This document shows, piece by piece, positions 6,306 through 62,136 of a DNA stretch of 64,000 nt. The position numbers and the translations under genes were made by a program. The DNA comes from an uncultured Gemmatimonadota bacterium (GTDB lineage Bacteria > SM23-81 > DAOVCL01): assembly GCA_964626665.1 (NCBI GenBank), contig CAZVGK010000013.1:1-64000 (forward strand), in the 5' to 3' direction. Below the pieces are notes generated by a model. It saw nothing but the letters and a program-made list of their open reading frames with translations, ran no database searches and had not been told where the DNA came from. Within the stretch, counting starts at the first letter, position 1. Each line of letters opens with the position of its first letter.

Positions 6306-7526
6306 TTACAGCGCCTCGGCTAATAGTTCACTGACATCCATCACCTGCAGGTCAAGGTTCATCGTTTTAACGCTATCCTCGAACATCTGTAGGCAGTAAG
6401 GACAGGCCACAGCCAGGACCTCGGCTCCGGTATCCAGTGCTTGCTGGACCCTTATATCGGCCATCCTCTCCCCTTTGGGCCAATCCAGCCACAACCCCCC
6501 ACTCCCCCCACCACAGCAGAAGGCAAACTGCCGGGAAAAGTTCTTTATCTCCATCAATTCCAACCCAGGGATGCTGCAGAGAATACCCCGCGGTTCCTCA
6601 TAGATGCCATTTTGCCGCCCTAAAGTGCAAGGATCGTGATAGACAACTTTTATTGGGTCGTTGGGTCGTTGAGTCGTTGAGTCGTTGGGTCCCTCCAGTT
6701 CTTTGAGTTTATTGGGTTTGAGGCTGCCTTCCTTTATAAGTTGGTAAAAGAGCTGGGTTGTGTGGAGGACTTCAAAATCCCCCCCCAGTTCCGGATATTC
6801 GTTCTTGAATGTGGTATAACAATGTGGAGAGGTAACTACTATTTTCTCTACACCTGCATTTTTAAATGCAGTAATGTTAGATTGGGCTGCCTCTTGAAAT
6901 ATCTTCTCGGCCCCCGCCCTTCTGATAGCCTCTCCGCAACACCATTCCTTTTCCCCTAATATCCCAAAGGAGACTCCCGCTTTTCTTAGGATCTTGGCCA
7001 CAGAGATAGCCACTTTGCGCAGCCGAGGGTCATAGGCGGGGAAACAGCCGGGGAAGTAGAGGAACTCCATATCTGGTTGAAAGGGGGGAATTGCCAAATC
7101 CTTGGCCCAATCGGCACGTTTTCCCCGCGGCTCTCCCAGAGGATTTCCCACATTGTGAATCTTAGAGACAACAGGTTTTAGGGTATCGGGGTATGACCCG
7201 TAGTCCACAAGGATCCGGCGCACCGCCCTGAGGATGTTGGGGATATTTACATCCTGGGGACATTGGTCAACGCAGGCCTCACAGCCAACACATCTATATA
7301 CCTCTGTTACCTCCCGGGAAAGCTCCTCCTTATTTTCACTGCTGGCAATTCTCCCCAATTGAGCGGCTAAAGGGAATTTGTAGGTGGGGAAGTTGACCGC
7401 CTCTGTCTGATACCAGGGGCATACGCTGGCGCACTTTCCGCACTGGTAGCACTTATAGATATCTGTAGCCCCTGCCTCTACGATGATATCTCTTAACTCC
7501 CAGATTGGTGTGGTAGTAGTTCCCAT
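6306..7526 (-). CDS. (Fe-S)-binding CCG-domain protein (HdrD/GlpC/FadF-like)
   Basis: Two 4Fe-4S motifs (CYQCGKCASVCP, CVGCEACVDQCP) and two CCG domains (WCCG; YHDPC...CCGGG...ACPYC). Confidence 0.9.
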   Translation of the reverse strand: MGTTTTPIWELRDIIVEAGATDIYKCYQCGKCASVCPWYQTEAVNFPTYKFPLAAQLGRIASSENKEELSREVTEVYRCVGCEACVDQCPQDVNIPNILRAVRRILVDYGSYPDTLKPVVSKIHNVGNPLGEPRGKRADWAKDLAIPPFQPDMEFLYFPGCFPAYDPRLRKVAISVAKILRKAGVSFGILGEKEWCCGEAIRRAGAEKIFQEAAQSNITAFKNAGVEKIVVTSPHCYTTFKNEYPELGGDFEVLHTTQLFYQLIKEGSLKPNKLKELEGPNDSTTQRPNDPIKVVYHDPCTLGRQNGIYEEPRGILCSIPGLELMEIKNFSRQFAFCCGGGSGGLWLDWPKGERMADIRVQQALDTGAEVLAVACPYCLQMFEDSVKTMNLDLQVMDVSELLAEAL

Positions 7527-7531
7527 TGGTT

Positions 7532-10500
7532 TTAAAAAGCCGCTTCAACCATCTTAGAGAGTTGTAGGTCGTTCAGGTTTCTCTGCTGAGCAGCTCCCGA
7601 TGGACAGACGGCCACGCAAGCTCCACAACCCTCGCACAAGGCCTCGTTTACCGTCGCCACCCTTTTTCCGCCCTTCACCCTTATCTCCCTTGCTCCATAG
7701 GGACAGACTGATATACAAAGCTCACAGCCACTGCAGATATCTTCGTCAACGGTCGTCACTATCGGTTCGTGCTGCAGTTCCTCCTGGGAAAAGATATCCA
7801 ACACCTTAGATGCTGCTGCCGATCCCTGGGTAACGGAATCCGGTATATCCTTCTGGGCCTGGGCACAGCCGGCAAAGAAAATCCCGGGGACAAGGGATTC
7901 AACCGGCCTGAGCTTGGGGTGGGCTTCGGAGAGAAATCCATAAGGGTTTGTTTGGATCTTTAGCTTCCTGGCCAGTTCAACCACCCCTGAAGAGGGAACT
8001 ATGGCCATAGAGAGAACAACCAGATCGACCTTAACCTGAATCTCCTCACCAGTGAGGGTGTTTACGCTCCACACCACAAGATCATCTCCATCCTTGAGTA
8101 TCCTCGATGGTTTCCCCCTGATATAGAGCACCTTACCCTCTTCCCTTGCTCTCATTAAAAACTCCTCATAGTCCTTACCGGCAGCCCTTGTATCGATATA
8201 GAAGACGACTGCCTCCCCGTCAGGGACATGGTGCTTGTATAAAAGGGCATGCTTTGCCGTATACATACAGCATATCTTTGAACAGTAAGGAAGATGATGC
8301 TTTGGGTCCCGGGAGCCGGAACAGGCGACGAAAGCCACCCTCTTGGGGACCTGACCATCTGAAGGCCTCTTCACCTCACCTTGAGTTGGCCCGGAGGCGG
8401 AGAGGAGCCTCTCAAACTGCAGTCCATTGATCACATCTTTATACTCTCCCCCCCCGTATTCTGTCATCTTCTCCACCGGGTATAATTCGTATCCGGTGGC
8501 CACCACAATGGCTCCCACCTCTTCCTCCAGGATTTCATCCTCCTGGCCGTGGTTTATGGCTTCCGCCTTACAGGCCTGCACGCATTCCAAACATTCAGCA
8601 CATCCTCCACAGTTAAGGCATCTCTCCGCTTCCTTTTTCGCCTGTTCCTCGGTCAATCCCAATTCTACCTCGGCAAATCCCTTGAGGGACTCAGAGACCT
8701 CCAGGAATCTCCCCTCTTCCCTTTTCTGCTGGGGTATACCCTTTGTCCAGATAGAACGGGGGTCCACCTTTTTTACCACCTTTCCCCTCCCCTCCTGGAG
8801 ATCAACCCCTTGGATGTATCTATCTATGGAGACTGCCGCCCTCTTCCCCTGGGCGATCGCCTCTATTACGGTGGCTGGCCCGGTGACCGCATCACCACCG
8901 GCAAATATGCCGGGAACGGTGGTCTGCAGGGTACCTTCCTCAACTACCAGGCTGTTCCATCCCTCGGTTAATCTCAGGTTTGTACCCTTTGGTAGATAGG
9001 AGGCATCTGGTGTCTGGCCAATTGTGGGGATTACGGTATCGATACCAATGGTGAATTCTGACCCCTGGATGGGGTGGGGGGATCTCCTCCCTGAGGCGTC
9101 GGGAGCCCCCAGCTTCATCCGGATGCATTCCATCTTGCTGACCTTTCCCCCCTCCCCTATTATCCGTTTAGGGTTTGCCAGATATTCTATCTTCACCCCT
9201 TCTTTCTCTGCCCTTTCTATCTCCTCCTCAATCGCGGGCATCTCTACCCTTGAGCGGCGATAGATGATGGTGACTTTTTTTGCCCCTAACCGCAAGGCGG
9301 TCCTGGCCGCATCAACGGCAGAATTGCCTCCCCCTATTATGGCCACCCTCGCTCCCACCTCAACCTTCTCCCCTAAGTTTATTCTCCTTAAGAATTCTAT
9401 CCCGTAATGAACCCCCGCTAAATCCTCGCCCTCTACTCCTAACTTCCTTTCAATGGGTGCACCTGTGGCAATATAAACCGCATTCCATCCCTCTCTCCTT
9501 AAGCCCTCCGGATCCTGCACCGGGGTATTCGTCCTGATCTCTACTCCCCAACCTTTGATGTAATCTATATCCCTTTGCAGTTCCTCCCTAGGTAATCTAA
9601 ATGCCGGGATCCCCACCCTCATCATCCCCCCAGCCACCGGGAGGGCCTCGAAGACCGTGGTTCTGTACCCTTTTTTGGCCAGTTCGGAGGCGCAGGAAAG
9701 GCCTGATGGCCCTGCGCCGATAATGGCCACCTTGCTTTCCTTTTGCGGAGGAAGCTGAGGGGTTTCCCTTTCCGTTTCCTTATCAGCTATGAACCTCTTT
9801 AGCGCCCTTATAGAGAGGGGTTCATCTACCTGGCCACGGGCACACTCGCCCTCACAGGGGTGGGTGCATACCCGGCCGCATACCGCGGGGAAGGGGTTTG
9901 CCTCCCTCTCCAGGGCGAGGGCTTCCTTGTATTTTCCCAATTTGATGAGATTGATATAGCCGGGGACATTTACTCCCGCCGGACAGGCCAACCTGCAGGG
10001 GGGAAGACCAAATTTGCTTATGGTAAATTTGTTGGGAATGGCTTGGGGGAAAGGTCTATATATTGCCTTACGAGGTATTAAGCCAACATCAAATTGGCTT
10101 CTTATGTCCACTGGGCAGGGTTCTGTGCAATCATCGCATCCGGTGCATTTATCCCAGTCCACGAAGGGGGCCTTTTTTCTGATCTTGACTTTGAAATTGC
10201 CCACATAGCCGGAGACCTCCTCTACCTCTGAGTAGGTATACAGCCTTATCTTTTCATGGTGGCCCACATCCACCATCTTTGGTGTGAGAATGCACTGGGA
10301 ACAGTCCAGGGTGGGAAAGGTCTCCGAGAGCTGCGCCATATGCCCGCCTATGGAGGGTTCCCTTTCCACGAGGATGGTCTCGTATCCGGCATCAGCTATA
10401 TCCAAGGATGCCTGTATGCCGGCTATACCCCCCCCAATCACCAAGGCCCGTCTGGTGATAGGTGTCTTTATGGGGATAAGGGCCTCATCCAGCCTGAGCT

Positions 10501-10873: not shown

Positions 10874-10877
10874 TACC

Positions 10878-11852: not shown

Positions 11853-11864
11853 TTTTCCTCCCAT

Positions 11865-12211
11865 GTTGAGTTTGTTGAGTCACTTGAGTCCATTGGGTTG
11901 GTTGAGTTATTACTCCGGCCACATTATAGTTTACACATTGCTATTTCAAGTGTCATTGCGAGGAGCACTTCGCTATTGCTCAGCACAGGCTCCGCGACGA
12001 AGCAATCCCGTAGTCTCAACAAGTATTCGGTGTTTTCAGATTGCTTCGCTGCGCTCGCCCCGTTAGATATCGATGAGATCTTAGAGATCTCAGGAGAATC
12101 TGACATTGAGAGAGATTATTATCTAACGGGGCTCGCAATGACATGCAATCTACTTTACGCTCCCAGTAGTAACTCTACGAACTCAATAAACTGAGTTAAC
12201 TCTATGAACTT
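11865..12211. repeat. Inverted TTGAG(T)/AACTC tandem arrays between etfB and etfA, enclosing a MITE
   Basis: Left arm TTGAGTTTGTTGAGTCACTTGAGTCC (11865-11908); right arm AACTCTACGAACTCAATAAACTGAG (12171-12211). Confidence 0.75.
11907..12172. mobile_element. About 265-bp nested MITE/REP element, copy 1
   Basis: Near-identical to 14443-14704; TTACT...AGTAA ends; GTCATTGCGAG...CTCGCAATGAC palindrome; inner CCCCGTTAGA...TCTAACGGGG insert. Confidence 0.8.
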
Positions 12212-12212
12212 C

Positions 12213-12986: not shown

Positions 12987-13114
12987 TACCCCTCCTCTTT
13001 AACTGAACTTAGCCTAAACTGCGAGGCTTTTCAGACAGGATTTTCGTACTGGTAGGTTCCTACCCAACCAGAATCTCCCTGGGACTCCGATAAACTCGCA
13101 GACCCTCCAAAATG

Positions 13115-13187
13115 GTAGCCGCAACCTTTAGGTTGCGACAAAACGCAGACTGAAGTCTGTGGCTACTGGGGATTTTGACTCAGCAAC
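13115..13187. repeat. GTAG-type REP palindrome
   Basis: GTAGCCGCAACCTTTAGGTTGCG...CGCAGACTGAAGTCTGTGGCTAC. Confidence 0.7.
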
Positions 13188-13246
13188 ATTGAGTCCTCTT
13201 TTGTAATCCTATAATATCAAGTTGACATTTCAGAATTGATAATTGT

Positions 13247-14389: not shown

Positions 14390-14442
14390 AATTTCCTCCT
14401 TCCGTTGAATCAAGAATTAAAAAGCGAATTATGTTTTAATCA

Positions 14443-26587: not shown

Positions 26588-27042
26588 AAATACCTAAAAA
26601 GTCCAAAATACCTAAATGCCTAAAATATGGAGAAGAAATATAGCGTTAGCGATGAGCTCAAAGGGAGAACCTATAATTTTGCCTTGAGAATTCTAAGACT
26701 TGGCAGGTTGTTGCCAAATACTGAAGAGGGCAGGATAGTTAGGAGACAGGTTTTCAAAGCAGGCACTTCAGTAGGGGCCAATCTGGAAGAAGCCGATGGT
26801 TCCTTAAGCTTAAATGACTTCATATACAAGGTGGACATCGCCTTTAAGGAGGCGAAGGAAACCAGATATTGGTTGCAGATGATCATTGATGCAGGGTTTA
26901 TCCCTCAAAAGAGGGTGTCACCAGATCTGGAAGAGTGTGTAGAGATCATCAAAATCTTGTCGACCATAATCTATAGGAGTTTAAAAAGGAAGAAAACTAA
27001 GATCTAAGTCTTTAGGTATTTAGGTCTTTAGGCATTTAGGTG
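26588..27042. mobile_element. Four-helix-bundle cassette with inverted 8-mer arrays (ACCTAAAT / TTTAGGY)
   Basis: Left TACCTAAA..ATACCTAAATGCCTAAA; right TTTAGGTA TTTAGGTC TTTAGGCA TTTAGGTG. Confidence 0.7.
26627..27007 (+). CDS. Four helix bundle protein (23S rRNA IVS-protein family)
   Basis: RTYNFALRI, QVFKAGTSVGANLEEA, DFIYKVDIAFKEAKETRYWL. Confidence 0.92.
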   Translation: MEKKYSVSDELKGRTYNFALRILRLGRLLPNTEEGRIVRRQVFKAGTSVGANLEEADGSLSLNDFIYKVDIAFKEAKETRYWLQMIIDAGFIPQKRVSPDLEECVEIIKILSTIIYRSLKRKKTKI

Positions 27043-27048
27043 GTTTAA

Positions 27049-34632: not shown

Positions 34633-35781
34633 ATGAGAGATGTCGCCATTATTGGGGTGGGAATGACAAAGTTTGGGGAGCTATGGGACAGTTCGATCCG
34701 CGATATTTTTGCCGAGGCCGCGCTTAAGGCCATAGCCGATGCTGGGGTTGACCACATAGACTCGATGTATGTGGGCAATATGACCGCTGGTTTGTTTGTG
34801 GGTCAGGAGCACATCGGGGCCCTGATGGCCGACTACTTGGGAGTTGTCCCCATTCCGGCAATAAGGGTTGAGTCCGCCTGTGCCTCTGGGGGGATGGCCT
34901 TACGCCAGGGTCTTATGGAGGTGGCATCTGGGATGAGCGATATTGTCCTTGCCGGAGGGGTGGAGAAGATGTGGGATGGTGTAGATGTGACCTATGCTTT
35001 GGCCACGGCCAGCGACCAGGAGTATGAGGTCTATCAGGGGATGACTTTCCCCGGCCTATATGCAACGATCGCCCGCGCCCATATGCACCGCTACGGGACA
35101 ACGAGGGAACAGCTTGCCTTGGTGGCGGTGAAAAATCACAAAAATGGCTCACTAAACCCCAATGCTCAATATCAGATGGAGATTACGGTTAATACGGTGC
35201 TCAACTCCACTAAGGTGGCAGATCCGCTTACCCTGCTGGATTGTTCCCCGGTGACAGACGGCGCCGCCGCGGTGATACTTTGTCCTCTTGCAGAGGCAAA
35301 GAGATATACTGACCTGCCTGTGAAGATACTTGCCTCCGCAGCGGCCACGGACTATCTGGCTTTACATCAGAGGGAGGACATAATCGCTCTGAAGGCAGTT
35401 AGGGTCTCAGCGGAGAAGGCCTTTAAACAAGCGGGGTTTGGGCCGGAAAAGATCGATGTGGCCGAGGTTCATGATTGTTTCACCATCGCAGAGATATGTG
35501 TAATCGAGGAGATGGGTTTTGCAGAGAGAGGGAAGGGGGGGGAATTTACCGCAAGGGGTTATACAGCCCTCGATGGCAAGATTCCCATTAATCCCTCGGG
35601 GGGCCTCAAGTCCAAGGGGCACCCCGTGGGAGCTACCGGGGTAGCGCAGGCGGTGGAAATAGTGGAGCAACTCCGTGGCGATGCCGGCAAGCGGCAAGTA
35701 AAGGGGGCCAAGATTGGACTTGCCCAAAATATGGGTGGTTCAGGGGCATCGTCAGTGGTTCACATATTTGGAGTTGCTTGA
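34633..35781 (+). CDS. Acetyl-CoA acetyltransferase (archaeal-type thiolase)
   Basis: [28 protein letters not shown]. Confidence 0.9.
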
Positions 35782-36030
35782 GTCATTGCGTAGTTAGGTC
35801 ATTGAGTCTGTAAGTATACGAGAAATTGGCAGAAAGTGAGAAACTTAGTCAGATACAAATGGACGGGCAGGAAGCTGGAGCAGAAGTTGGCCTCATCCTT
35901 ATGAAGCATTGGCTCTAAACTATGTCATCGGAATGATTTCGCTAAACCCTACACCACTTTGACTCAACAACTCAATAAACTCAATAGACTCAACAGATTC
36001 AATGACTCAATAGACTCAACGCACTCAACA
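35778..36030. repeat. Inverted TTGAGTC/GACTCAA arrays around a decayed spacer of about 150 bp
   Basis: Left TTGAGTCATTGCG..ATTGAGTC; right about 8 units of (G/A)ACTCAA ending at RBS GGAGG. Confidence 0.75.
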
Positions 36031-36043
36031 AACGGAGGTTATT

Positions 36044-36451
36044 ATGCCAGTGCCAAGGTATACAAGGGAGATACCCCAAAGATTCAGGCTGGAGGCGAGT
36101 AGGTGCAAATCCTGCGGTAAGATTCTTTTCCCCCCTAGGCCTGTCTGCCCACAATGTGGGTCAAAGGAATTTGAAAAAGTGCGGTTGAGCGATAAGGGGA
36201 AGGTGGTTACCTTCACGGTAATTAGGGTTGCTTCTGAGCAGTTCGCTACCCAGACACCCTATGTGGTAGCTGTGGTGGAGTTGAGTGATGGAGCGCGCAT
36301 AACCACCCAAGTGGTGGACTGCCGGCCGGAGGAGGTAGAGATTGGGAAGTCGGTGCGGCTTGTTTTCCGGAGGGTTCAAGAAGAGGGCAAAACAGGCATC
36401 CTCAATTATGGGTACAAGGGTGTGTTGAGTCAGGACTCATTGAGTCGTTGA
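36044..36451 (+). CDS. DUF35 Zn-ribbon/OB-fold protein
   Basis: CKSCG...PPRPVCPQCGS; OB-fold GKVVTFTVI, PYVVAVVEL. Confidence 0.92.
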   Translation: MPVPRYTREIPQRFRLEASRCKSCGKILFPPRPVCPQCGSKEFEKVRLSDKGKVVTFTVIRVASEQFATQTPYVVAVVELSDGARITTQVVDCRPEEVEIGKSVRLVFRRVQEEGKTGILNYGYKGVLSQDSLSR

Positions 36452-36950
36452 GTCATAGAAATCCTTGGGCCGCCGAGTGATGAAGATCAAAAGATTCGAA
36501 GACATAAAAGCTTGGCAAGGGGCAAGGGATTTGGTCAACAAAATATATAAGGCCATAAGGGGTAATAATGGCTTTTATCGAGATTTCAGGTTCAGGGAAC
36601 AGATACAGGCGGCAGGTATTTCTGTGATGTCTAATATCGCAGAAGGGTTTGCCAGGAGTAGCGACCGTGAGTTTAAAAGGTTCTTATGGATAGCTAAAGG
36701 TTCTCTCGCAGAGGTTCAGAGTCAACTGTGGGTGGCGCTTGATCAAGGGTATGTCACCCAGGATGATTTTGATAGGCTATATGCAAAGGCGGAAGAAGTG
36801 GCCAAGCTAATTTCCGGTTTCATCACCTATCTCCTCGACTCAAAGACCCAACGGACTCAATGACTCAGAACTCAAAGACCCAATAGGCCCAACGGACTCA
36901 GAGACTAAATGACTCAACGACTCAATAGACTCAATGAACTCAACAAACTG
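36424..36950. mobile_element. Four-helix-bundle cassette with inverted TTGAGTC/GACTCAA arrays
   Basis: Left TTGAGTCAGGACTCATTGAGTCGTTGAGTC; right about 12 GAC(T/C)CAA-like units up to ATG 36953. Confidence 0.75.
36480..36863 (+). CDS. Four helix bundle protein
   Basis: IKRFEDIKAWQ, QIQAAGISVMSNIAEGF, FLWIAKGSLAEVQSQL. Confidence 0.93.
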   Translation: MKIKRFEDIKAWQGARDLVNKIYKAIRGNNGFYRDFRFREQIQAAGISVMSNIAEGFARSSDREFKRFLWIAKGSLAEVQSQLWVALDQGYVTQDDFDRLYAKAEEVAKLISGFITYLLDSKTQRTQ

Positions 36951-41721: not shown

Positions 41722-42211
41722 GTTCGTCTACGCGGGCAAAACTTATCGGGTAAACGTTGAAGCAGCCACGGGATCGTGGTTGATCAGCATCGATGACGGA
41801 GAGCCTTTAGAGGTTAAGCTAATTTCTTCCTCCCCGTATTGCCTCTCCTTCTCAATGGGGGGTAGGCCCATAACCGCCTATGCCCTGCAAGGGGATGGCC
41901 GGAGGTACATCTCCATAGATGGCGAGTCCTTTTCCTTTGAGTTGGAGAAGAGTAGGGCAAGGAGGGCCCCTGGGGTAGCGGCCCAGGGGGGAGGAAATGT
42001 GGTCAGTTCCCCGATGCCCGGCTTTTTGGTGAAGGTGCTCGTCTCAGGTGGTGACAAAGTAGAGGTAGGGCAAACGCTGGCCATTGTTGAGGCAATGAAG
42101 ATGGAGAATGAGCTGAAGTCACCGATTAAAGGGATAGTAAAGCGGGTAAAATTCGAGGAGGGCAACCAGGTGGACGCCCTCCAACCCATTGTAGAGTTGG
42201 AAGCTGTTTAG
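41708..42211 (+). CDS. Biotin carboxyl carrier protein
   Basis: SPMPG, EAMKMEN. Confidence 0.92.
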   Translation: MVEYRFVYAGKTYRVNVEAATGSWLISIDDGEPLEVKLISSSPYCLSFSMGGRPITAYALQGDGRRYISIDGESFSFELEKSRARRAPGVAAQGGGNVVSSPMPGFLVKVLVSGGDKVEVGQTLAIVEAMKMENELKSPIKGIVKRVKFEEGNQVDALQPIVELEAV

Positions 42212-42477
42212 TCTACGAGTCTAAAAGTCTAATAGTCTAAGAGATTGAGGTCTTTCCATTAGCTATAAGGGATGTTGAGAAGTTTCGCAGAGGTTTTAGG
42301 AAGAAGAAGTCCTAAAAGGGTTTGGATATCATCTGGGAATAACCGAAGGGTTGATCTTTTAATATCACCGTAATTGGAGGACTGGCGTTGCGGGGAGAGA
42401 CAATAAAGATATTGAATTCCCTTTGCACAATGGTGCCCCACCACTTTTAGACTTTTAGACTCTTAAGCTGCTAAGCT
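42210..42477. repeat. Inverted 8-mer arrays (AGTCTAA / TTTAGACT) around a non-coding spacer of about 200 bp
   Basis: AGTCTACG AGTCTAAA AGTCTAAT AGTCTAAG ... TTTTAGACT TTTAGACT CTTAAGCT. Confidence 0.75.
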
Positions 42478-42486
42478 GCTCCCTAC

Positions 42487-43346: not shown

Positions 43347-44129
43347 ATGGGGTATAAAAGCTTGATTGTGGAGATTGCCGACCAGGTAGCCGTGGTGAAG
43401 ATAAATCGTCCCCCGGTAAACGCGATGAATGCCGAAGTGGCCCGGGAACTGGAGGGGGCAATGCATAACCTAAATGACAACGCCGATGTGAGGGTAATCA
43501 TCATTACCGGTGAAGGCAAGGCCTTTGTTGCTGGCGCGGATATTGCGGCTATGTCCAAGTTCAATTCACTCCAAGCAAGGGAGTTTGGGAAGTTAGGATG
43601 TCGTGTGCTTTCCTATATTGAGAATATGGAGGAGCCGGTAATTGCCGCGGTAAATGGGTATGCGTTGGGAGGCGGTTGTGAGATCGCTATGGCCTGTGAT
43701 ATCAGGATAGCCTCCTCCAAGGCGCTCTTCGGCCAGCCAGAGCTGAAGCTTGGGCTTATCCCCGGATGGGCGGGCACCCAAAGGATGTCACGCATCCTGG
43801 GGATTGGCAAGGCGAAGGAGTTGATATTTACCGGCGACTCCATTGATGCTCAGGAGGCTCTCAGGATTGGACTGGTGAACAGGGTTGTTCCCCCTGAGGA
43901 GCTGATGGACGAGGCCCAAAAATTTGCTCAGAAGATGTTAGAAACGGGACCCACTGCCCTTAAGCTGGCCAAGACCGTTATAAATCGGGGTCTTGACTCT
44001 AACTTCACCACTGCGTCATCCTATGAGTCGGAGGCCTTTGGGGTCTGCTTCTCTACCCCCGAGGTTAAGGAGGGGATGCAGGCATTCTTAGAAAAGCGTA
44101 AACCAAAATGGAGTTTATTGAGTTCGTAG
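43347..44129 (+). CDS. crt: Crotonase / short-chain enoyl-CoA hydratase
   Basis: AFVAGADI, GYALGGGCE, FGQPELKLGLIPG. Confidence 0.85.
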   Translation: MGYKSLIVEIADQVAVVKINRPPVNAMNAEVARELEGAMHNLNDNADVRVIIITGEGKAFVAGADIAAMSKFNSLQAREFGKLGCRVLSYIENMEEPVIAAVNGYALGGGCEIAMACDIRIASSKALFGQPELKLGLIPGWAGTQRMSRILGIGKAKELIFTGDSIDAQEALRIGLVNRVVPPEELMDEAQKFAQKMLETGPTALKLAKTVINRGLDSNFTTASSYESEAFGVCFSTPEVKEGMQAFLEKRKPKWSLLSS

Positions 44130-44268
44130 AGTTTATTGAGTCTGTTGAGTTTATTGAGTTTTAGGATGTTGACTCAACGAACTGGGTGAACTCAAAGAAC
44201 TGAGCTAACTCAATGGACTGTGCGGACTCAAAAGACTGTGTTGACTCAATGAACTGAGTAGACTCAAA
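44111..44268. repeat. Empty inverted TTGAG(T/C)/(G/A)ACTCAA array (long imperfect hairpin)
   Basis: About 6 GAGTT/GAGTC units, a spacer of about 10 bp, then about 10 ACTCAA/AACTG units ending at RBS GGAGG. Confidence 0.8.
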
Positions 44269-50089: not shown

Positions 50090-51167
50090 ATTTCCCTGCT
50101 TCAATCGAGTCGTTCAACCCGAAATCGCTGATAATTCAACTGTAGAGTGATTCTTCTCCCGATTTTTTACCGGACGGCGCAAAAGGCGTGGCAGAAAAAT
50201 CAAAGCAGCGCAGTATTCCTCTGCTTTTTTGCAGTCTGTCCAATCCACCGATCCAGACGGTGGCTTCTTCCGCACTGTCCTTCATGTCCCGCTGACGCAG
50301 GTATTCCCCCCTAGCTTCCACATTGGTTCGCCAGGCATGATGCGCCTCATCGTTAATAACAATCAGATTGCGGCTGTTTGCCATATCGCCCAGCACCTGA
50401 CGGGTATAGGCCTCATCGCTCAACACGCCGCGTTTATCCACGCTTTTTTTCTTCTGGACCTGCTCATCGCTTTCCCACGACAGTTTATGCCAGTTGATTA
50501 CCTTGATGCGGCCCTGCCGCAACCGTTCCATCAAGCCCTGGGGAACAATATTGAATTCCTCATAGTAATCCTCAGGGGCAGTGGGATATAACACCGACAA
50601 GCGTTTTTTTACGGTCAGTCCCGGAGCCACAACAAGAACATCTTTGGCAAACCGGGTATTCTGGCGGTTCGTGATCTTGTTCAGCACCTGCCAGGCAATC
50701 AGCATGGCCATGATGACCGTTTTGCCAGTGCCGGTGGCCATCTTGCAGCACCAGCGCGCAAACTCTCCGCCGTCCCCCGGGATCTCAATACCGGTCTTTC
50801 CCGCTTCAGGTGCCTCATTCAGCCAGATCAGGGTTTCTATGGCTTCCAGTTGACAGAAGAAAAACCGCCTGATTTCCCGTTCCTCCGGGTCCTGCCAGTG
50901 ATGAAGCAGCCGGCGGGTGATGCCGGAAACACCGGGATACCCATTCCCCCGCCAGGCCTTTAACCGGGGGCGGATTTTATTGACCAGTTCAATGGGCACA
51001 AAGACCCCCGGATCATCAAACCCACTGCTGTCCGGCATAGTGACAACATATCCGGCAGGCCTGCGACCCTTGCGTCTTTCAAATGAGCGATGTTCCCGGT
51101 CATAATGCCAGTAATATTTCGGCTCCTCATACGGAGAGTTGATGATGAGTTTGTCTATCTGTTTCAT
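50090..51167 (-). pseudogene. Type III-like restriction (Res, DEAD helicase) gene, truncated
   Basis: FFCQLEAIET, KMATGTGKT, NDEAHH, FSATP; continues LYS*IISDFGLNDSIEAG and then breaks off. Confidence 0.85.
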
Positions 51168-51508
51168 TTTTTCTCTTTATCAAGTATCACCTTAAGAGTT
51201 GTGAGAAGCGGCGGCAAATCTGCCTGTACCGTTTTCCATACGATTTCATAATCAATCTCGAAATAGGCGTGGACTAAAACATTTCGCATGGATATTACAT
51301 CCCGCCAATCAATGTTATTGTATTTTTCTCGGAATGGTTTTGAGATTTTGGAAGCCGCTTCGCCAATAACTTCTATAGAACGAACCGTTGCGTTTGTGGT
51401 CATTCTGTCTTTGCAAAATTCTTCAAAAGTTATGCCCTTACAGAAAGATACAGCAGCTTGCGCTTCTTCAAGTATATGCGATATTCTGGTAATATCATCA
51501 ATGACCAT
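51164..51508 (-). CDS. HepT-like (DUF86) ribonuclease toxin
   Basis: IEVIGEAA, MRNVLVHAYF (RX4H), VWKTV. Confidence 0.92.
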   Translation of the reverse strand: MVIDDITRISHILEEAQAAVSFCKGITFEEFCKDRMTTNATVRSIEVIGEAASKISKPFREKYNNIDWRDVISMRNVLVHAYFEIDYEIVWKTVQADLPPLLTTLKVILDKEKK

Positions 51509-51800
51509 ACTGTATCACCGCATTCTTTACCACATCATCCCTGAAATAACGGCTTAGATCATTTGGGGTGTGAAGTTCGACCTCTCTACCTATTAGGTCG
51601 GATAGCAAATTTTGAATATGACAAAATCCCATAAGGCCTGGCGCTTTCCCAGGCTCAAATTCAATAAGTATATCAACATCGCTGTCCGCGGTCAGTTCAT
51701 CACGCAAAGCCGACCCAAACAGAGAAAGTTTTCTGATTCGATATTCACTGCAGATTGACTTCATTTGCTCATCTGAAATATAATCCCCGAGCTTAAACAT
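51498..51800 (-). CDS. MNT antitoxin
   Basis: LFGSALR...SDVDILIEF. Confidence 0.92.
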   Translation of the reverse strand: MFKLGDYISDEQMKSICSEYRIRKLSLFGSALRDELTADSDVDILIEFEPGKAPGLMGFCHIQNLLSDLIGREVELHTPNDLSRYFRDDVVKNAVIQYGH

Positions 51801-51812: not shown

Positions 51813-52139
51813 TTATAGTGGTATTACCCTTAAGCTTTCAATGCCCCTGTCGTCTATGATTTTTACGGCGATTTTGGTGTTTTCCCCCTTTTTAAAAGGA
51901 AGCGAACCCGTCCCCTTAAATGCCTCGATCTTTTCCTCATCAATTTCAGCTTTCAGGTTCCTTGCCAGTTTGCTCCAGCCGTCTTTCGCTCCGGCCATAG
52001 GGAAAAATACCTGGGATGGAAACAGGCTGCGGTCGTCATAGTCGGTATCCAGAAGCCACATGGCGATGTTCCCCTTGCCGCCGGAATCCACATTCCCGGT
52101 TTTGGGGTTGTAATAATCAAAGCCAAGCACCTCCACTTG
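51813..52139 (-). pseudogene. C-terminal fragment of a type III-like DNA methyltransferase
   Basis: QVEVLGFDYYNP...IAMWLLDTDYD...IAVKIIDDRGIESL; N-terminal catalytic part absent. Confidence 0.75.
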
Positions 52140-52156
52140 TGAATAGTGAACAGTGG

Positions 52157-52228
52157 TTAGTGGCGAGTGGACAGTGATTTGAGCTGACCTGTCAATAATT
52201 TGCTTATTTCCTCGTAATTGTTTAAGAA
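52157..52228 (-). pseudogene. Four-helix-bundle C-terminal remnant with heptamer array (52141-52180)
   Basis: FLNNYEEISKLLTGQLKSLSTRH*; array AGTGAAC AGTGGTT AGTGGCG AGTGGAC AGTGATT. Confidence 0.65.
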
Positions 52229-52294: not shown

Positions 52295-52570
52295 CCGCCG
52301 CTCGTGAGCGGCGGAGGAATGCCATCCGCTTTGGGGATCGTTAAGGGGCAAAATCCCCTTAACACAATTCCGCTTTAGCGGGATTGCATTTTTGTCCTCC
52401 CGTGGTTATCTTTAGGTAACTAATGGGAGGACGGAATCATGCCTATTCGAAAAGCAGCCCATGTTACCTATAATATCTAATACCACTTTGTCTGGATTCC
52501 CAAGTATCAGAAGATGGTCCTCGATGGTGAAATTGCTCAGGAGTTGGAGAAACTGATCTATGTGGTGTAG
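52295..52570 (+). mobile_element. IS200/IS605 left-end hairpin and TnpA N-terminal pseudogene (52439-52570)
   Basis: Hairpin CCGCCGCTCGTGAGCGGCGG; MPIRKAAHVTYNI*YHFVWIPKYQKMVL. Confidence 0.75.
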
Positions 52571-52700
52571 GGTCAGGTCTTGCCTTTTGCCACCTTGCGC
52601 CTTGAGGCTATCCTGCTTAACCGTGAGTAGCGCCCCCTCAAAATTCCCCAACTTCCCTAAGTTTGTATCCCCACCTATAAAGGCCCTCGTATATACCCTA
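52569..52700 (-). pseudogene. Possible RAYT-like transposase C-terminal HTH remnant
   Basis: Minus strand reads GYKLREVGEF*...YSRLSRIASRRKVAKGKT, ending in CAAGACCTGACCC. Confidence 0.4.
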
Positions 52701-52965
52701 AATCCTCTCCCTCCCAATATGAATCCTCCCTTTACCTCCTACATGTGAGAAATAGGGGACGGTGGTGCAGAAATTGTCAAACGCTTTCGGCTTGCCCTCC
52801 TCTATGTCCTTAATTTCTATTTTTCAGCCTGACTCCATCGACTTATCCAAGCAACATCAGGATTGTGCAGATTCAATTCGTTCATCTTGAGCATAACGAA
52901 AAAAGCCACGAACCGTTCATCAACCTGCTGTTTGGACCATTGACAGACTTCGTCGATTGGCTGCG

Positions 52966-53278: not shown

Positions 53279-53280
53279 TC

Positions 53281-54836: not shown

Positions 54837-54989
54837 TTTATTATTTTGTGGACATTGAGCGAGAACCCCCCAAAGGTAAAACCTTGGGGAATCACCCTTG
54901 GAGGGCCATCAAGGGTTGGATAGGAGACCTGAGGGGATATCCCCCGGAATTAACAGAATACGGTGAGCCTTCTTTTCCGGCTAAGTTCT

Positions 54990-57506: not shown

Positions 57507-57658
57507 TTAGATCCTCATGATTTATGAAAATTATCTTGCAAAATCTACGTCCAAAGTCGACAGAGCGGTCAGATGCCCTCATCTGATCGTGGCAGAATCG
57601 GGATTTTGCCCCCTCATCTTTGGGAAAGCCAATTGGGAAAAAGTTATGCATCTGCATC

Positions 57659-60600
57659 TTAAAAGATCCCCCTGATCCCCTTCCCTTTCTCCACCTTTAT
57701 CTCCGGAAGGGCCTTGATGTTTACCCGGAAGTAGTATCCCTTCCTGAATCCGGTGGGTATCCAGTAGAGCCAAGCCTCCCAGCAGTGGAGGTCCCGATGG
57801 AACTTGAAACTCTGGGAAGTAAGTTTCCTCTCCACAAAATCGTAACGGGCCTGATAGGAAACTCTCCAGTTTGGTGTTAGGTTTAGGGAAAGGTTTCCGG
57901 ATAGCCAGTTTGTCTTGCTGGGACTGCCTTTCATCCGATAGATATGATGGGAGAGCCCAAATCTCCAGGGCCTTCTCCCCTTCCCCTCTCCCTCCCAACC
58001 GGAGAGGGAGAGATTTGTGGTCAGGGAAAGGGATTTCAGGTGAGGGAGGGTCAGCTCACCCTGGGAGGAGTATAGATCGTAGGTGGAGGTCAGAGTGATC
58101 CCAAGGCCCCTGAATGGCCTCACCCTTAGATTAGAGTTAAGGTAACTCCATTTCCGGTTTAAGGCCTTGAAGTTATAGCCGGTGGAGAGGTTAAGGGTGG
58201 CCAGCTCTACCTTTTTAGGTTTCTCCTTTCCCCATTTCATCTGAAATATGTTGTTTAAACTCATCCCCAGGACCTTCCTCTCCCCTGCGGAGGGGCCTAT
58301 CCCTCCAAATGAGTAGAACCTCTCCTGATCCTTAAACTTTGGCTTCCAACTATAGGACAAACTGGGCTTGAGGATGTGTCTGAATCCGGTTATCCTCCCC
58401 CAATGGGGAAGAAATATCCCATAGATGGTTGTGTTTGCCCGCAAGGAGAGATCATAGGTGGTGTTGTGCACAAAGCTCTTCCCCTCCTTATCCTTGTCCC
58501 ACCAGGTATGCCTCAGGTTGAAGGAGGGGGAAAGGGTGAGCCATCTAAGCTTCTGGGGGCCGGTAAAGCTTAAGCGATTATCCAGGCCGCTGTGGGAATC
58601 TGTTTTTCCTCCCGTCTTATGGCTGTAGTTCAAGAGATAGGAGGAGAAGGAGAGGTAGATGTTTTGGTACCATCCCTTTTCCCCTTCCTCGCCTTTAAAG
58701 ATGGGGGAGGAGGGGTAGGAATACCTCATCGAGGGGAGGGATTGAGTTATCTCATCAAGATCTATGACGCCGTCACCATCCAAATCAAAAAGGTTCTGGT
58801 ATCTATCCAGGCCTATGTTTAGGCTGGATGTCTCCCACCTTTTGGAGAGGGCGAGGTGGGAGTGGAGAGAACGGTTCATCCTCTCCTGAGGGTGGAATCC
58901 GATATTCGAATAGTAGCTCTTATCGGATATGAAGAAGCCATTGGCGGTCAGCTTCCAGGTGGGGGAAAGATCTTGATAATGACGAAAATTCAGATCCCAT
59001 CTCTGCCGATGTGGAAGCTCGCTACCTACCCGCTTCCCTTCTCTGTTCCAGGATCCCCCAACCTGCCCTTCCAGTCTGTACCTCAGGGCATACCTGGCCT
59101 GGCCCTTGAGGAGAAGGCCAGTCTCCTCATAGTAGTCCAGGCTTAAGGTGGCATCCCAGTAGGGGCTGGGGGCGAAATAGTAGCCCAGATTCCGCACAAA
59201 CCTCTGGCTTACATCCCAGACCCCCAGATCAAAGGTGAGGAGGCCTGAGTGCCTGCCCGGCTTTATGGGGAAGACACAGAAGGGGATGGCGGCCACCGGG
59301 AGATCGGCGATATAGAGGACTACCGGCTGGGCAATCACCTTATCCTTGGGGATAATCTTCATCTTCTTACTCCAGAAGTGGTAATGGGGGGTGTCCAGAT
59401 CGCAGGTGGTAAATCTTCCCCCCTCTACCAGGATGACCTCTGGGTTAACCTCCACTATCTCCTCCCCTCGGTAGATGCCCTGTTCGTAGTTGGACTCTCC
59501 ATATCTCACCTTCCCCCTCCCGGTCTCCAGGTTATAGGCCATCCTCACCCCTCTTAACTCCTGGTTGCCGTCCCAGAAGACTGGTCCCCCTTGAGCCTCC
59601 AGGATCTTAGAGTCCAGAGCATACTCGATGCTGTCTGCCTCAAGCTTATAGCTGGCATACTCTATCTGAGCCCCACCCACGAGGTCTATCTTTCCCTGGG
59701 AGTATACGATGGACTGGGCCCTGTATCTCACCGTGTCCACCCCTCCCTCCTGGGAGGGGGAGAGATAGGTTCCCTCCACTCCTCCCCACATCCTCACCTG
59801 GTTCGCCCTACCGCCGGAGAAGTCCACCCTACAGGAATCTGATGAGGCCCTGTTCTCCCCACCCAATCCAGTATCAGGGGGTGAAAAGTAGAAGCTTCTG
59901 GAGTTTCCTTCTACCTTTATGGCTTCAAGTCTATCCTCGGTGATCGTGATGTTCATCCTCTTGCCCGTAACCCAACCCCATTCAGAGACCCTCCCCCTTT
60001 GGTCCCTATCCTCGAACTCCCCCTTGGCATCTCCCCAGACGAAGACCTTTTTTGGCCGACGATCCTCCACCCTTATCTCCATCCTCCTCCCGGTAAGCCT
60101 CTTGGCCTCCTGAAGGATGACCGGAGATTCGCGGAGGATTATCCTCTCCTCTTTAAAGAGAAAGAGGCCATAGCCAGAGGTGGCCTCAAGCTCTCCTCTC
60201 CTGATGCTGACATCTCCTTTGGCCTCACCCTTATTTTCCTGGGGGAAGAGCTCAATGCTATCGGCCTGCACAGTTGTCCTGGCTCCCTCCTCCTCTATGG
60301 TCTCCAGGAGTGGGTTACCTGTGGCCAATATCCTCCCCTCCCTCCTCCAATATTCCATCCTCCCGCAGGTCAGCTTAGTCTGATTCTCCTCATCCCAGCC
60401 CTTAACCCAGCCTTCGGCCAATGCTCTCTGCTCATCCTTGAAATAGGTGGCCTTATCCGCCCAGATCGTGGTCTCCCCGTCTGTGAGCTTCACCTCCCCC
60501 TTAAAGACTACCATCCTCTGGTTTTTGAACCAGGTCGCCTCATTGCTCCTCAGGGATGTCTCCCCCTGCCGGAATCGGACATCTCCCTTGAGATAGGTGA

Positions 60601-60733
60601 TCACTGAGTCCCGGCCAAAATAGGTGCGCAGGGAATCGGCATTTTGCAGGATAAGAGGCTCTTCGGAGGAAAAGCCGAGGATGGGGAAAAGGAGAATTAA
60701 GATGGAAGTAAAGATTTTGTTAAGTGGATTCAT
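57659..60733 (-). CDS. lptD: LPS-assembly protein LptD-like with OstA repeats
   Basis: OstA-like N-terminus, FTTCDLDTPHY, RDLHCWE. Confidence 0.8.
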   Translation of the reverse strand: MNPLNKIFTSILILLFPILGFSSEEPLILQNADSLRTYFGRDSVITYLKGDVRFRQGETSLRSNEATWFKNQRMVVFKGEVKLTDGETTIWADKATYFKDEQRALAEGWVKGWDEENQTKLTCGRMEYWRREGRILATGNPLLETIEEEGARTTVQADSIELFPQENKGEAKGDVSIRRGELEATSGYGLFLFKEERIILRESPVILQEAKRLTGRRMEIRVEDRRPKKVFVWGDAKGEFEDRDQRGRVSEWGWVTGKRMNITITEDRLEAIKVEGNSRSFYFSPPDTGLGGENRASSDSCRVDFSGGRANQVRMWGGVEGTYLSPSQEGGVDTVRYRAQSIVYSQGKIDLVGGAQIEYASYKLEADSIEYALDSKILEAQGGPVFWDGNQELRGVRMAYNLETGRGKVRYGESNYEQGIYRGEEIVEVNPEVILVEGGRFTTCDLDTPHYHFWSKKMKIIPKDKVIAQPVVLYIADLPVAAIPFCVFPIKPGRHSGLLTFDLGVWDVSQRFVRNLGYYFAPSPYWDATLSLDYYEETGLLLKGQARYALRYRLEGQVGGSWNREGKRVGSELPHRQRWDLNFRHYQDLSPTWKLTANGFFISDKSYYSNIGFHPQERMNRSLHSHLALSKRWETSSLNIGLDRYQNLFDLDGDGVIDLDEITQSLPSMRYSYPSSPIFKGEEGEKGWYQNIYLSFSSYLLNYSHKTGGKTDSHSGLDNRLSFTGPQKLRWLTLSPSFNLRHTWWDKDKEGKSFVHNTTYDLSLRANTTIYGIFLPHWGRITGFRHILKPSLSYSWKPKFKDQERFYSFGGIGPSAGERKVLGMSLNNIFQMKWGKEKPKKVELATLNLSTGYNFKALNRKWSYLNSNLRVRPFRGLGITLTSTYDLYSSQGELTLPHLKSLSLTTNLSLSGWEGEGKGRRPWRFGLSHHIYRMKGSPSKTNWLSGNLSLNLTPNWRVSYQARYDFVERKLTSQSFKFHRDLHCWEAWLYWIPTGFRKGYYFRVNIKALPEIKVEKGKGIRGIF

Positions 60734-60739
60734 CTGAGG

Positions 60740-61681
60740 TCAGGGTTTAAGGATGAGGGAAGCAGCCCCAATCAGGCCGGCATCCTCCCCCAAGAGGGTG
60801 GGAACGACCCTCACCTTTTGGATCTCTCGATTTATCGCCCTCTCGGCCAGGGTCCTTCTCATCGGCCCAAAGATGAGCTCACCGGCCTGGGCAACCCCTC
60901 CTCCCACGATGATCAACTTTGGATTGAGCAGGTTTACCGCACCGGAGAGGGCGGCACCGATTATCTCCCCTGTCTCCTGAAATACCTCTTTGGCCAGGTC
61001 ATCTCCCCTTTGGGCCGCCTCTGCTATAAGCTTTGGGGTAATTATACCATCTTTATTAAGAGGGGGAAGGATGCTTTGAGGATTATCCCTCAGTTTCGTT
61101 TGCGCCCTCTCGATTATATATTTTGCCCCTACATACCTCTCCAAGCAGCCATAGTTGCCACACCTACAGCGGGGGCCAAATATGTTCACCGGCAGATGGC
61201 CGATCTCCCCTGCCCCACCCTTGCTGCCGGTAAAGAGCTTCCCATCGAGGATCAAGCCACCGCCTACGCCGGTGCCCAGGGTTATGCATATCAAGTCCTT
61301 CACCCCTTTTCCTGCCCCAAAATGGAGCTCGCCCAGGGCGGCGGCATTGACATCGTTGGCCACCTCTAACTGGAGACTTAGCCTTTTCTCCAGTTCCTTT
61401 TTTACATTAACTTCCTTCCACCCTATGAGGTTCGGAGGATCCCTTACTATGCCCAGTTCCACCAGGCCTGGACAGCCAACCCCTAAACCGTTAACCTCCT
61501 CCCCCTGGTTTAGCACCTGGACCAAATTGGCTATCTGATCCAAGATCCTCTCAGGCCCCTCCTGGGCCTGGGTCTGGATGCTAAGTCTTCTAAGGATTTG
61601 CCCATTTTGGTTGACTACCCCACCCTTGATGTTTGTCCCCCCCAAGTCTACTCCAATGGCTAATTGTCTCTCTTCCTCCAA
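60740..61681 (-). CDS. ROK family glucokinase
   Basis: DLGGT, NDVNAAALGE, GTGVGGG, EIGH, CRCGNYGCLE. Confidence 0.92.
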   Translation of the reverse strand: MEEERQLAIGVDLGGTNIKGGVVNQNGQILRRLSIQTQAQEGPERILDQIANLVQVLNQGEEVNGLGVGCPGLVELGIVRDPPNLIGWKEVNVKKELEKRLSLQLEVANDVNAAALGELHFGAGKGVKDLICITLGTGVGGGLILDGKLFTGSKGGAGEIGHLPVNIFGPRCRCGNYGCLERYVGAKYIIERAQTKLRDNPQSILPPLNKDGIITPKLIAEAAQRGDDLAKEVFQETGEIIGAALSGAVNLLNPKLIIVGGGVAQAGELIFGPMRRTLAERAINREIQKVRVVPTLLGEDAGLIGAASLILKP

Positions 61682-61697
61682 TTTTCCTCTCCCCTCA

Positions 61698-62136
61698 AGA
61701 TTGTAAATTGAAAGTTGTAAATATCAAATTTGAAATTGCTCATTGCCTTTTCTTCGCCGTTATTACCGATTTTCCAATAATTTTACTAATTCGTTCAGTC
61801 TCCTTTAAGGCTTCTTCGAACTCTGCTCCTCCCAAAATTTGGGAACGTTGGATTAGTTTTAACCAATACATTGATTCCCGAGTTTCTTTCAGAACAATAT
61901 GCAGTTTGTGGATAAAATCTGCTCTACTTTGAGCACCTCGAGCTTCCTCATAATTGGCACCAACAGATGTTCCTGAACGCAACAATTGATTCCCTATATG
62001 CTTACCGATTGCCGTCTTATTTAACCTGGCGCAGATTTTGATGATCGCCACGCCATAATCAAGCAATCGCTCAGATATTTGAGCAGCCTTATCTTCCATT
62101 TTGCAATTTAAAATTTTCAATTTGCAATTTGCAATA
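61698..62136. mobile_element. Four-helix-bundle cassette with inverted heptamer arrays
   Basis: Coding strand: ATTGCAA ATTGCAA ATTGAAA ATTTTAA ATTGCAA before ATG; TTTCAAA TTTGATA TTTACAA CTTTCAA TTTACAA after the stop. Confidence 0.7.
61740..62099 (-). CDS. Four helix bundle protein
   Basis: ERLLDYGVAII, QLLRSGTSVGANYEEARGAQSRADFIHKLHIVLKETRESMYWL. Confidence 0.93.
   Translation of the reverse strand: MEDKAAQISERLLDYGVAIIKICARLNKTAIGKHIGNQLLRSGTSVGANYEEARGAQSRADFIHKLHIVLKETRESMYWLKLIQRSQILGGAEFEEALKETERISKIIGKSVITAKKRQ

Follow-up and report, generated by a model that had tools for sequence, protein, structure and literature searches.

The closest described counterparts of the elements considered here are the intervening sequences (IVS) of 23S rRNA genes. 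In the partial text of PMC4990558, the helix-45 IVS of Coxiella burnetii carries an open reading frame (ORF) for S23p, which corresponds to PF05635, and 28-bp terminal inverted repeats (TIRs), and its sporadic distribution is attributed to horizontal transfer; the ORF is preceded by tandem heptamers (GACAGAT), three to four depending on the strain, and the origin and mobility of rRNA IVS have been an open question since the early 1990s. The 64,000-nucleotide window analyzed here (C13:1-64000 of assembly G000 of an uncultured Gemmatimonadota bacterium, in which C-numbers denote contigs) contains three PF05635 genes, each enclosed between a short tandem repeat array and its reverse complement. 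Such a cassette is inherited and transferred together with its repeat arms, and resides in junctions between co-oriented operon genes. The ORF-bearing IVS of Coxiella and Leptospira have in common with it the gene family and the terminal inverted repeats forming a stem around the ORF, whereas the cassettes lie in mRNA operon junctions instead of rRNA helices (9, 25 and 45) and in them each arm, upstream as well as downstream, consists of a tandem array throughout. The single 23S gene of G000 (C22:51863-54919) matches the rRNA model end to end, with neither an ORF-bearing IVS nor a tandem array. The cassettes look like the same element as the rRNA IVS in its commoner habitat, ordinary operon junctions.

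Other described systems resemble the cassettes in part. Repetitive extragenic palindromic (REP) elements and REPINs with their REP-associated tyrosine transposase (RAYT) also consist of a protein gene flanked by its own inverted repeats and many gene-less intergenic hairpin copies. However, RAYT is an HUH Y1 transposase of known mechanism, whereas the product here is a four-helix bundle without a known catalytic site, and the repeats here are tandem arrays of short units differing from cassette to cassette. Integron cassettes are similar in that a promoter-less ORF is co-oriented with an outside promoter and in that imperfect inverted repeats form hairpins whose structure matters more than a fixed sequence, but they have one attC per cassette beside an integrase, whereas here each gene has two arms and the junctions are scattered; no integrase was found among the window ORFs scanned with Pfam. 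Avd, the accessory protein of diversity-generating retroelements (DGRs), has the same fold and belongs to a related family; PF05635 is reported as an Avd-like family in the partial text of PMC10053308, and one G000 paralogue matches Pfam bAvd (PF22296) at E 7.5e-8, below the model cut-off. In contrast to DGRs, no reverse transcriptase (RVT_1) was found in the whole of the G000 genome (3.17 Mb, 99.65% complete), and none lies beside any cassette, and so a DGR role is unlikely and spread driven by a reverse transcriptase was rejected. In the literature searched, from which subscription journals were largely absent, repeat-armed cassettes in operon junctions were not found described; the architecture was found reported for rRNA IVS alone, and the other reports found concern the Avd link and family genes in cas loci.

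The three window genes, which an earlier note made from the sequence alone had recognized as four-helix-bundle genes in co-oriented operon junctions, all score above the curated cut-offs of PF05635 (33.8 bits) and TIGR02436 (24 bits) with matches that cover the full domain (Table 1), and a Pfam scan of the neighbors places gene 1 between BCCP and methylmalonyl-CoA mutase (MCM) genes, gene 2 between DUF35 and carboxyltransferase genes and gene 3 between TrmO and ROK kinase genes, both neighbors being co-oriented in each case. Tandem Repeats Finder (TRF) and direct reading locate the upstream array and the reverse-complement downstream array that the note had assigned to each gene, with units of 7-9 bp (ACCTAAAT, TTGAGTC and ATTGCAA types). 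Direct reading places the outer edge of the upstream arm at the preceding stop codon or overlapping it, and that of the downstream arm a few bases short of the following start codon, near the ribosome-binding site, again as the note had it. The cargo between the arms of the window cassettes matches PF05635 only, without a Y1 (HUH) transposase, and the absence of transposase and reverse transcriptase from the cassettes had likewise been noted. Compared with shuffled arms, the arm pairs reach z scores of -4.3 to -8.4 as RNA and -2.8 to -10.2 as DNA, the observed RNA duplex energy being attained by at most 0-1 of 200 shuffles. In minimum-free-energy (MFE) folds of the full unit, the two arms pair mutually at 7/7 paired sites to form a long stem around the cargo, involving 40 of 46 left-arm bases in cassette 2 and 47 of 58 in the hairpin at 44111.

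Table 1. Positions, strands and properties of the cassette genes, arms, hairpins and lone arrays in the window (aa, amino acids).
Feature	Position	Strand	Properties
Four-helix-bundle gene 1	26627-27007	+	126 aa; PF05635 E 1.5e-17, 64.1 bits; TIGR02436 82.2 bits; PDB 2rld E 2.6e-20
Four-helix-bundle gene 2	36480-36863 (ORF from 36465)	+	127 aa; PF05635 E 4e-32, 111.1 bits; TIGR02436 110.1 bits; PDB 2gsc E 3.6e-13
Four-helix-bundle gene 3	61740-62099 (ORF to 62120; ATG 62099)	-	119 aa; PF05635 E 7.4e-18, 65.2 bits; TIGR02436 87.4 bits
Cassette 1 upstream arm	26588-26626	+	~4.4 copies of AAATACCT, directly after BCCP stop (26585-87); TRF and reading; duplex z -5.7
Cassette 1 downstream arm	27008-27043	+	TTTAGGTA units; ends in AGGTGG, 6 nt before MCM start 27049; TRF and reading
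Cassette 2 upstream arm	36425-36458	+	TTGAGTC-type units; overlaps last codons and stop of DUF35 gene
Cassette 2 downstream arm	36837-36949	+	~13 GACTCAA-type units; ends 3 nt before carboxyltransferase ATG 36953; TRF and reading
Cassette 3 upstream arm	62094-62135	-	ATTGCAA-type (ATTGYAA) units; adjoins TrmO stop; TRF and reading
Cassette 3 downstream arm	61700-61738	-	ATTGYAA array; TRF and reading
Arm pair without ORF	35778-36033 (second arm from 35961)	+	TTGAGTC type; 150-bp loop; thiolase/DUF35 junction
Arm pair	42210-42480 (second arm from 42443)	+	AGTCTAAG / ACTTTTAG; 199-bp loop; BCCP/FMN-reductase junction
Gene-less hairpin	44111-44268	+	GAGTTTATT array, in frame at end of enoyl-CoA hydratase gene, against ~100-bp GACTCAA-type array (from 44171)
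Electron transfer flavoprotein (ETF)-junction hairpin	11865-12209 (arms 11865-11907, 12167-12209)	-	TTGAGT-type arms around 260-bp repeat element; between ETF-beta stop and ETF-alpha ATG
Lone array	6651-6719	-	TTGGGTCG/TTGAGTCG read in frame within CCG-domain oxidoreductase gene; no partner arm
Lone array	52139-52185		7-bp period, GTGNNNA x6; no partner arm; cassette link unproven

Besides the cassettes, the window holds gene-less hairpins and lone arrays, among them the empty hairpin at 44111, the element-filled hairpin at 11865 and the single in-frame array at 6651, which are present where the note had placed them. Gene-less copies thus exist, as proposed, and they carry the unit of a nearby intact gene. 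The claim that the unit differs for each gene holds for the three genes, but not for the arrays of the window at large, since TTGRGT-type arrays recur at five sites (6651, 11865, 35778/35961, 36425/36837 and 44111). When the loops at 35778 and 42210, which had been taken for decayed cargo, were compared with 88 family proteins, no match was significant, the best E being 0.008 in a five-sequence database. An inverted partner sought within 1.5 kb of the arrays at 6651 and 52141 was not found (scores <=19).

The cassettes and hairpins were compared with genomes of the same genus (G001 and G002), a genome of another family (G004) and further distant ones. The clearest allele pair is the ETF junction, where the TAA of ETF-beta is directly followed by the ATG of ETF-alpha in G002 and G000 has 345 bp exactly between them without target duplication. 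Cassette 1 is found with its arms at the same junction in G002 and is absent from G004, in which 13 bp separate the two genes. Cassette 3 is intact in G001 (94% identity), and in G002 its left arm and a 3' stub remain, after which comes an unrelated repeat, whereas cassette 2 has lost the 5' two-thirds in G002, with ~100 bp of the 3' end left. As to the other sites in G002, the hairpin at 44111 is represented by the left arm alone, the one at 35778 is shorter (59 bp between aligned gene blocks), the array at 6651 is present in diverged form, and the arm pair at 42210 is absent, the junction having an 11-nt spacer with a ribosome-binding site. Read by eye, the gene after the 42210 arm pair lacks a GGAGG-type ribosome-binding site in G000 (42466-42486), whereas the empty G002 junction has one (GAGGGGAAG); the 42210 insertion appears to have replaced the spacer.

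Elsewhere in G000, a 511-bp cassette exists in at least four copies (C7:75679-76189; C11:79770-80273; C60:6670-6926 with C59:7131-7390; C31:1-97 with C61:4874-4927), the third of which an insertion has split in two, 6 bases being shared at the break, and the fourth of which lies at contig ends. Its outer inverted termini of ~28 bp (GTAAC...GTTAC) lie outside the tandem-repeat arms, and 8-bp target duplications (TTTAATTC, AATTGAAA and AATTCTGG) are seen in all three copies with both flanks. The C7 copy is inserted in another repeat element, an uninterrupted relative of which is found at C3:173200-173400. The right arm of an AATTGCA-type array hairpin (C1:33513-33845) is interrupted by a gene-less 200-bp element (C1:33621-33822) that shares the GTAAC termini and has an 8-bp duplication of its own (CAATTTTC). 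Some copies, namely the 511-bp family, plainly use a route with TIRs and an 8-bp duplication, whereas the ETF hairpin entered a stop/start junction without duplication, as judged against the empty G002 site. Together with the filled, decayed and empty alleles in genomes of the same genus, these near-identical copies with target duplications support the view that arms and gene form one unit that is gained, lost and moved, in line with the mobile unit that the note had considered; the closest protein relatives, moreover, belong to unrelated phyla.

The outer termini and the 3/3 duplications of the 511-bp family, and the gene-less C1 element that is alike, are what would be expected if the cassettes were passengers of TIR elements that are non-autonomous and depend on a DDE transposase acting in trans, with the arms as internal decoration. 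However, the three window cassettes and the ETF hairpin are without outer termini or duplication, the empty-site comparison being that of the ETF hairpin, and the arms are conserved far beyond the needs of a passenger. The GTAAC...GTTAC termini are presumably IS66-like, and no IS66-type transposase was found in the genome when sought as the mover of the GTAAC-ended family. A passenger origin of the cassettes is thus very unlikely.

Gene 1 and its G002 orthologue are separated by 0.064 nonsynonymous (dN) and 2.15 synonymous (dS) substitutions per site (dN/dS 0.03), the dN/dS of the neighbors being 0.06-0.10, and gene 3 and its G001 counterpart by a dN of 0.035 and a dS of 0.19 (dN/dS 0.18), with a dS of 0.45-0.58 for the flanking genes. 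These ratios show that the cassette gene is under purifying selection. The low dS of gene 3 may reflect a more recent exchange of the cassette after the lineages split, or constraint at the nucleotide level. Between G000 and G002, the arms of cassette 1 are 85% (upstream) and 75% identical, compared with 59% for the third codon positions of the ORF, and arm complementarity is retained in both orthologue pairs. Strong purifying selection, retention at the same junction across the genus and arms that extend between the stop codon on one side and the ribosome-binding site on the other and are conserved in orthologues could also be explained by a host regulatory module, in which protein and arrays tune the flanking operon genes, for example by TRAP-like binding of transcript repeats, and are kept for the benefit of the host. 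Against such a module, the flanking genes are unrelated (acyl-CoA metabolism, tRNA methylation, a sugar kinase and cas1/cas2/cas4), close relatives reside at differing junctions in differing phyla, and copies are often decayed or deleted or occur as near-identical copies with target duplications, so that we regard it as very doubtful.

The association between genes and arms was examined across G000, in which there are 16 PF05635 matches, 8 PF13366/GxxExxY matches and 466 tandem arrays with a period of 6-10 and about three or more copies (251 intergenic, 29 partly intergenic and 186 inside greedy ORF calls). The complementarity between 110 nt upstream and 110 nt downstream of each of 2853 greedy ORF calls was scored by local alignment. 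A score of >=24, reached by the top 1.75% of these 2853 genes, was obtained for 11 of the 14 testable PF05635 genes; a twelfth, at C5:63880, has its arms slightly further out, and the top scorers also include three of the four intact GxxExxY genes. The others at the top are presumably RAYT-like genes with REP flanks and insertion sequences (IS elements). By a strict TRF criterion, an array is present at one or both ends of 9.3% of all genes and at both ends of 0.38%, as compared with at least one end in 11/13 and both ends in 3/13 of the PF05635 genes. Arrays on both sides are found for 3/17 cassette genes (PF05635 and GxxExxY) and for 8/2888 others (Fisher p 2.7e-5), which is a lower bound only because the strict two-sided criterion misses degenerate arms. 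An inverted partner lies within 1.5 kb of 28/466 arrays, as against 6-7 in two orientation controls. Two other statistics were tried and rejected. The RNAduplex energy of 100-nt flanks gave a genome-wide background as strong as the signal (control mean -38.8 kcal/mol) and was replaced by the local-alignment scores, and pairs of mismatched loci were inflated as a null for arm complementarity since many loci share units, and so the genome-wide gene distribution was used instead. The arrays are thus enriched around these genes, the arms can pair and the sites are polymorphic for presence and absence, the three points on which the earlier note had let its proposal stand or fall. By eye, 11 distinct cassettes of G000 carry 11 distinct units, and all 13 hits of the TTGRGT array pattern in 3.17 Mb fall in C13:6.6-44.2 kb, around the sole gene with that unit. 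A ~200-bp repeat family (CTTCATAAGGCAA...), found at ~30 places (e.g. C21:55190-55400, C3:25800-26000 and C8:92680-92920), contains an AAGAATT-type heptamer array and accounts for many of the 44 arrays of that type.

The same architecture is found beyond this genome. The best 80 relatives of the gene 2 protein, retrieved with this single protein as query from contigs with one genome per species and 48-68% identical to it, come from Thermodesulfobacteriota, Nitrospirota, Binatota, Omnitrophota, Planctomycetota, Acidobacteriota, Verrucomicrobiota, Bacteroidota, Chloroflexota, Pseudomonadota and others. Inverted arms flank 46 of the 77 with enough flanking sequence, direct arrays flank 10, and 21 have neither, several of these 21 having one arm or a broken ORF. 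TRF detects an array upstream in 70/78 and downstream in 63/78 (median 4.6 and 4.4 copies), most commonly with a period of 7, then 9 and 8, and with 17 nt between array and ORF on either side. A rough frame test, which gave a wrong call in at least one known case, has both neighbors co-oriented in 44/71 relatives. For the gene 1 protein, which represents a second, distant clade, 70 loci were found in metagenome contigs, of which 20 were left out (partial match or contig end) and 50 were run; inverted arms are present in 28 and direct arrays in 8 of the 45 that were testable. No relatives were found in viral contigs with the six patterns searched or in 50,697 phage records at E 1e-5, and 23 plasmid records contain relatives, including plasmids of Nostoc, Calothrix and Anabaena. 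In the cultured Bacteroidota Riemerella anatipestifer, a four-helix-bundle gene (NZ_CP081938.1:100318-100734) lies between inverted GGTTYAA / TTRAACC arrays and adjoins an Fe-S assembly gene on one side; the record is typed as a plasmid yet carries lepA.

Repeat unit and protein clade, whose covariation the note had suggested checking, do co-vary. In a quick maximum-likelihood tree of 88 proteins, clades mix phyla yet share a unit, a clade of 24 carrying TTGRGT and others GTCCAA, CGAGTT or AAGTC. The fraction of cassette pairs that share a 6-mer with at least three repeats in the arms rises from 6% at 40-50% protein identity to 13% at 50-60%, 30% at 60-70% and 67% at >=70%, and identity at four-fold sites is saturated (0.27-0.28) up to 70% protein identity. 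All six closest relatives of the gene 1 protein (63-72% identity) have CCTAAA arms, and at least two of the six reside at another junction, thiolase/DUF35. It follows that the arms move along with the gene and that their sequence is conserved. Shared units do not demonstrate that the protein reads the arms, because kin share labels; the covariation nevertheless strengthens the suggestion that each protein may recognize its own repeat.

This covariation also bears on the possibility that the hairpins came first, namely that tandem-repeat hairpins are a generic intergenic repeat, like REP or the short tandemly repeated repetitive (STRR) sequences of cyanobacteria, and that small mobile genes land in these insertion hot spots. 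STRR sequences are abundant intergenic tandem arrays of 7-9-bp units with no assigned function and, to our knowledge, are not linked to a gene. They resemble the arms in being short tandem arrays, and genes of the family occur on cyanobacterial plasmids, but the arrays of the one such copy read, on a Nostoc PCC 7120 plasmid, are non-complementary. The 466 arrays in G000 as compared with only ~20 cassette genes, the unrelated miniature inverted-repeat transposable elements (MITEs) inside array hairpins (11865-12209; C1:33513-33845) and the insertion of GTAAC-type elements into AT-rich arrays all point toward hairpins as landing sites. On the other hand, the unit tracks the protein clade and not the host across at least ten phyla in two clades, and all TTGRGT arrays of the genome adjoin the sole gene with that unit, and so there is little likelihood that the genes are secondary arrivals.

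Whether the arms act as RNA or as DNA can be approached through the mismatches between them. In the proposal of the note, the paired arms form an mRNA stem from which the cargo loops out as in an IVS; on this model, RNase III would cut the stem formed in the operon mRNA, thereby releasing the cargo RNA and separating the flanking cistrons. The strong RNA pairing, mutual in the MFE folds, and the co-orientation of the cassettes with the operon are consistent with this, as is the Coxiella IVS, for which the partial text of PMC4990558 describes a gene of the same family preceded by heptameric repeats, with a 28-bp terminal stem that RNase III cuts. Were a stem maintained because of the sense transcript, one would expect an excess of mismatches compatible with G·U pairing on the sense strand. 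However, in 85 cassettes with an arm alignment (2549 matched columns), 112 mismatches are of the sense-wobble and 108 of the antisense-wobble type (p 0.84), and the 231 transversions are as common as the 220 transitions. The tRNA stems of G000, as predicted by ARAGORN, have 74 G·U and no A·C among 1045 bracketed pairs, which is a weak control since the brackets may mark allowed pairs only. Moreover, the direct arrays in 10/77 and 8/45 relatives cannot form a stem, and it is the sequence of the unit, not complementarity alone, that is conserved. An RNA element of the IVS type is therefore unlikely, even though the arms can pair. Because there is no excess of sense-strand G·U, arm complementarity looks as if selection or template-switch correction preserved it at the level of DNA, without preference for either strand.

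These observations lead to a hypothesis to which we assign about an even chance, that the cassette is an IVS-type selfish promoter-less element whose arms serve as cis sites in the DNA for its own protein, which is probably pentameric and probably binds them. The cassette would be transcribed from the host operon, and the four-helix-bundle protein would bind about five tandem units per arm; the arms would act as DNA and not as RNA, and new copies would arise mostly by local copying or by recombination between arms of the same unit, not through a cassette-borne transposase. A protein that binds its own arms would fit the roughly five units per arm, the conservation of the unit sequence, the differing units within a single cell and the local grouping of arrays with the same unit. 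The PDB relatives 2gsc and 2rld have five chains each, and 2gsc is said to form pentamers of four-helix bundles.

Several points weigh against this hypothesis. The match between five chains and ~4.5 units per arm may be mere numerology. We know of no binding, cutting or joining activity for the PF05635 family, and no catalytic partner for the cassettes was identified in this analysis. Most G000 arrays are not cassettes because only 28/466 have an inverted partner within 1.5 kb; 21/77 relatives of the gene 2 protein are without an arm pair and 10/77 have direct arrays, and of the gene 1 relatives 8/45 have direct arrays and 9/45 fall in neither class. The wobble test had no independent positive control, and long vertical retention under purifying selection also fits a gene that is useful to the host. 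In addition, a conventional transposase may move cassettes in trans, because the only copies with clear marks of transposition share their outer termini with a gene-less MITE.

A bolder extension of the hypothesis, which we put forward tentatively and consider improbable as a whole, is that a ring of five bundles reads about five units per end and directs copying of the cassette into nearby operon junctions, although the cassette carries neither a transposase nor a reverse transcriptase. The elements and the GxxExxY cassettes would then make up a new, phylum-spanning, protein-guided mobile class, of which orphan arrays (including STRR sequences), rRNA IVS and 'cas-associated' intervening-sequence protein (IVP) genes would be traces.

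The link to cas loci has been noted before. The partial text of PMC3936711 reports 23S_rRNA_IVP genes between cas genes, e.g. between cmr3 and cmr2, and that of PMC10910872 lists the IVP family among CRISPR-linked families. Likewise, three to four G000 copies lie among cas3, cas1, cas2 and cas4, but the G000 cassettes are found equally in metabolic operons, each with its own arms, and therefore the cas linkage looks like insertion into junctions and not like a cas function. The type I cas operon (C5:62.3-69.8 kb) is composed of cas3, a broken IVP gene (89 aa), DUF6036, cas1, IVP, cas2, IVP and cas4. A CRISPR array on the minus strand (C5:58.9-60.7 kb), whose repeat is 37 nt long (...GGAACATCCATTAAAACAAGGATTGAAAC), has a ~125-bp mini-cassette in place of each of at least six 'spacers', composed of a small stem-loop, an AGAATTA-type arm, a 13-codon ORF remnant and an inverted arm, and one full four-helix-bundle cassette with AGAATTA-type arms lies at the end of this stretch, which a run of N interrupts.

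A few further features of the window and genome were recorded. The lone array at 52141 had been described as a remnant next to a broken methylase, but its only recognizable neighbor is a truncated-looking restriction endonuclease of the BPTD_3080 family (50136-51167), of which the N-terminal third is left (positions 2 to 368 of the 970 in the profile). Directly after it comes a HepT/MNT toxin-antitoxin pair (51164-51508 and 51498-51800), and no match was obtained for the ORFs at 51813-52136 and 52412-52717. At 63495-63794, 1.9 copies of a 162-bp unit (75% match) lie within the gene for a surface protein sorted by the type IX secretion system (T9SS; 62772-63977 and beyond). Genes at C21:25817-26482, C21:28857-29522, C58:3346-4317 and C2:36874-37218 are flanked by inverted REP-like palindromes (AAAATAGGGACACTTCCTATTTT type) and are, from their sequences, taken to be RAYT-like (IS200-type Y1 transposase). 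A second system of repeats plus gene, presumably RAYT-like, thus exists in the same genome.

The operon junctions described here allow filled, decayed and empty alleles to be compared directly. If the hypothesis is true, a large orphan family related to the DGR protein Avd would gain a testable function, binding of its cognate tandem repeats, and at least part of the unexplained short tandem repeat arrays of bacteria would have a source. Reports of 'cas-associated' IVP genes would be re-read as junction insertions, as the G000 cas operon illustrates, and in genome annotation, small genes that split conserved operons and arrays that extend or replace gene ends and ribosome-binding sites would be treated as one unit.

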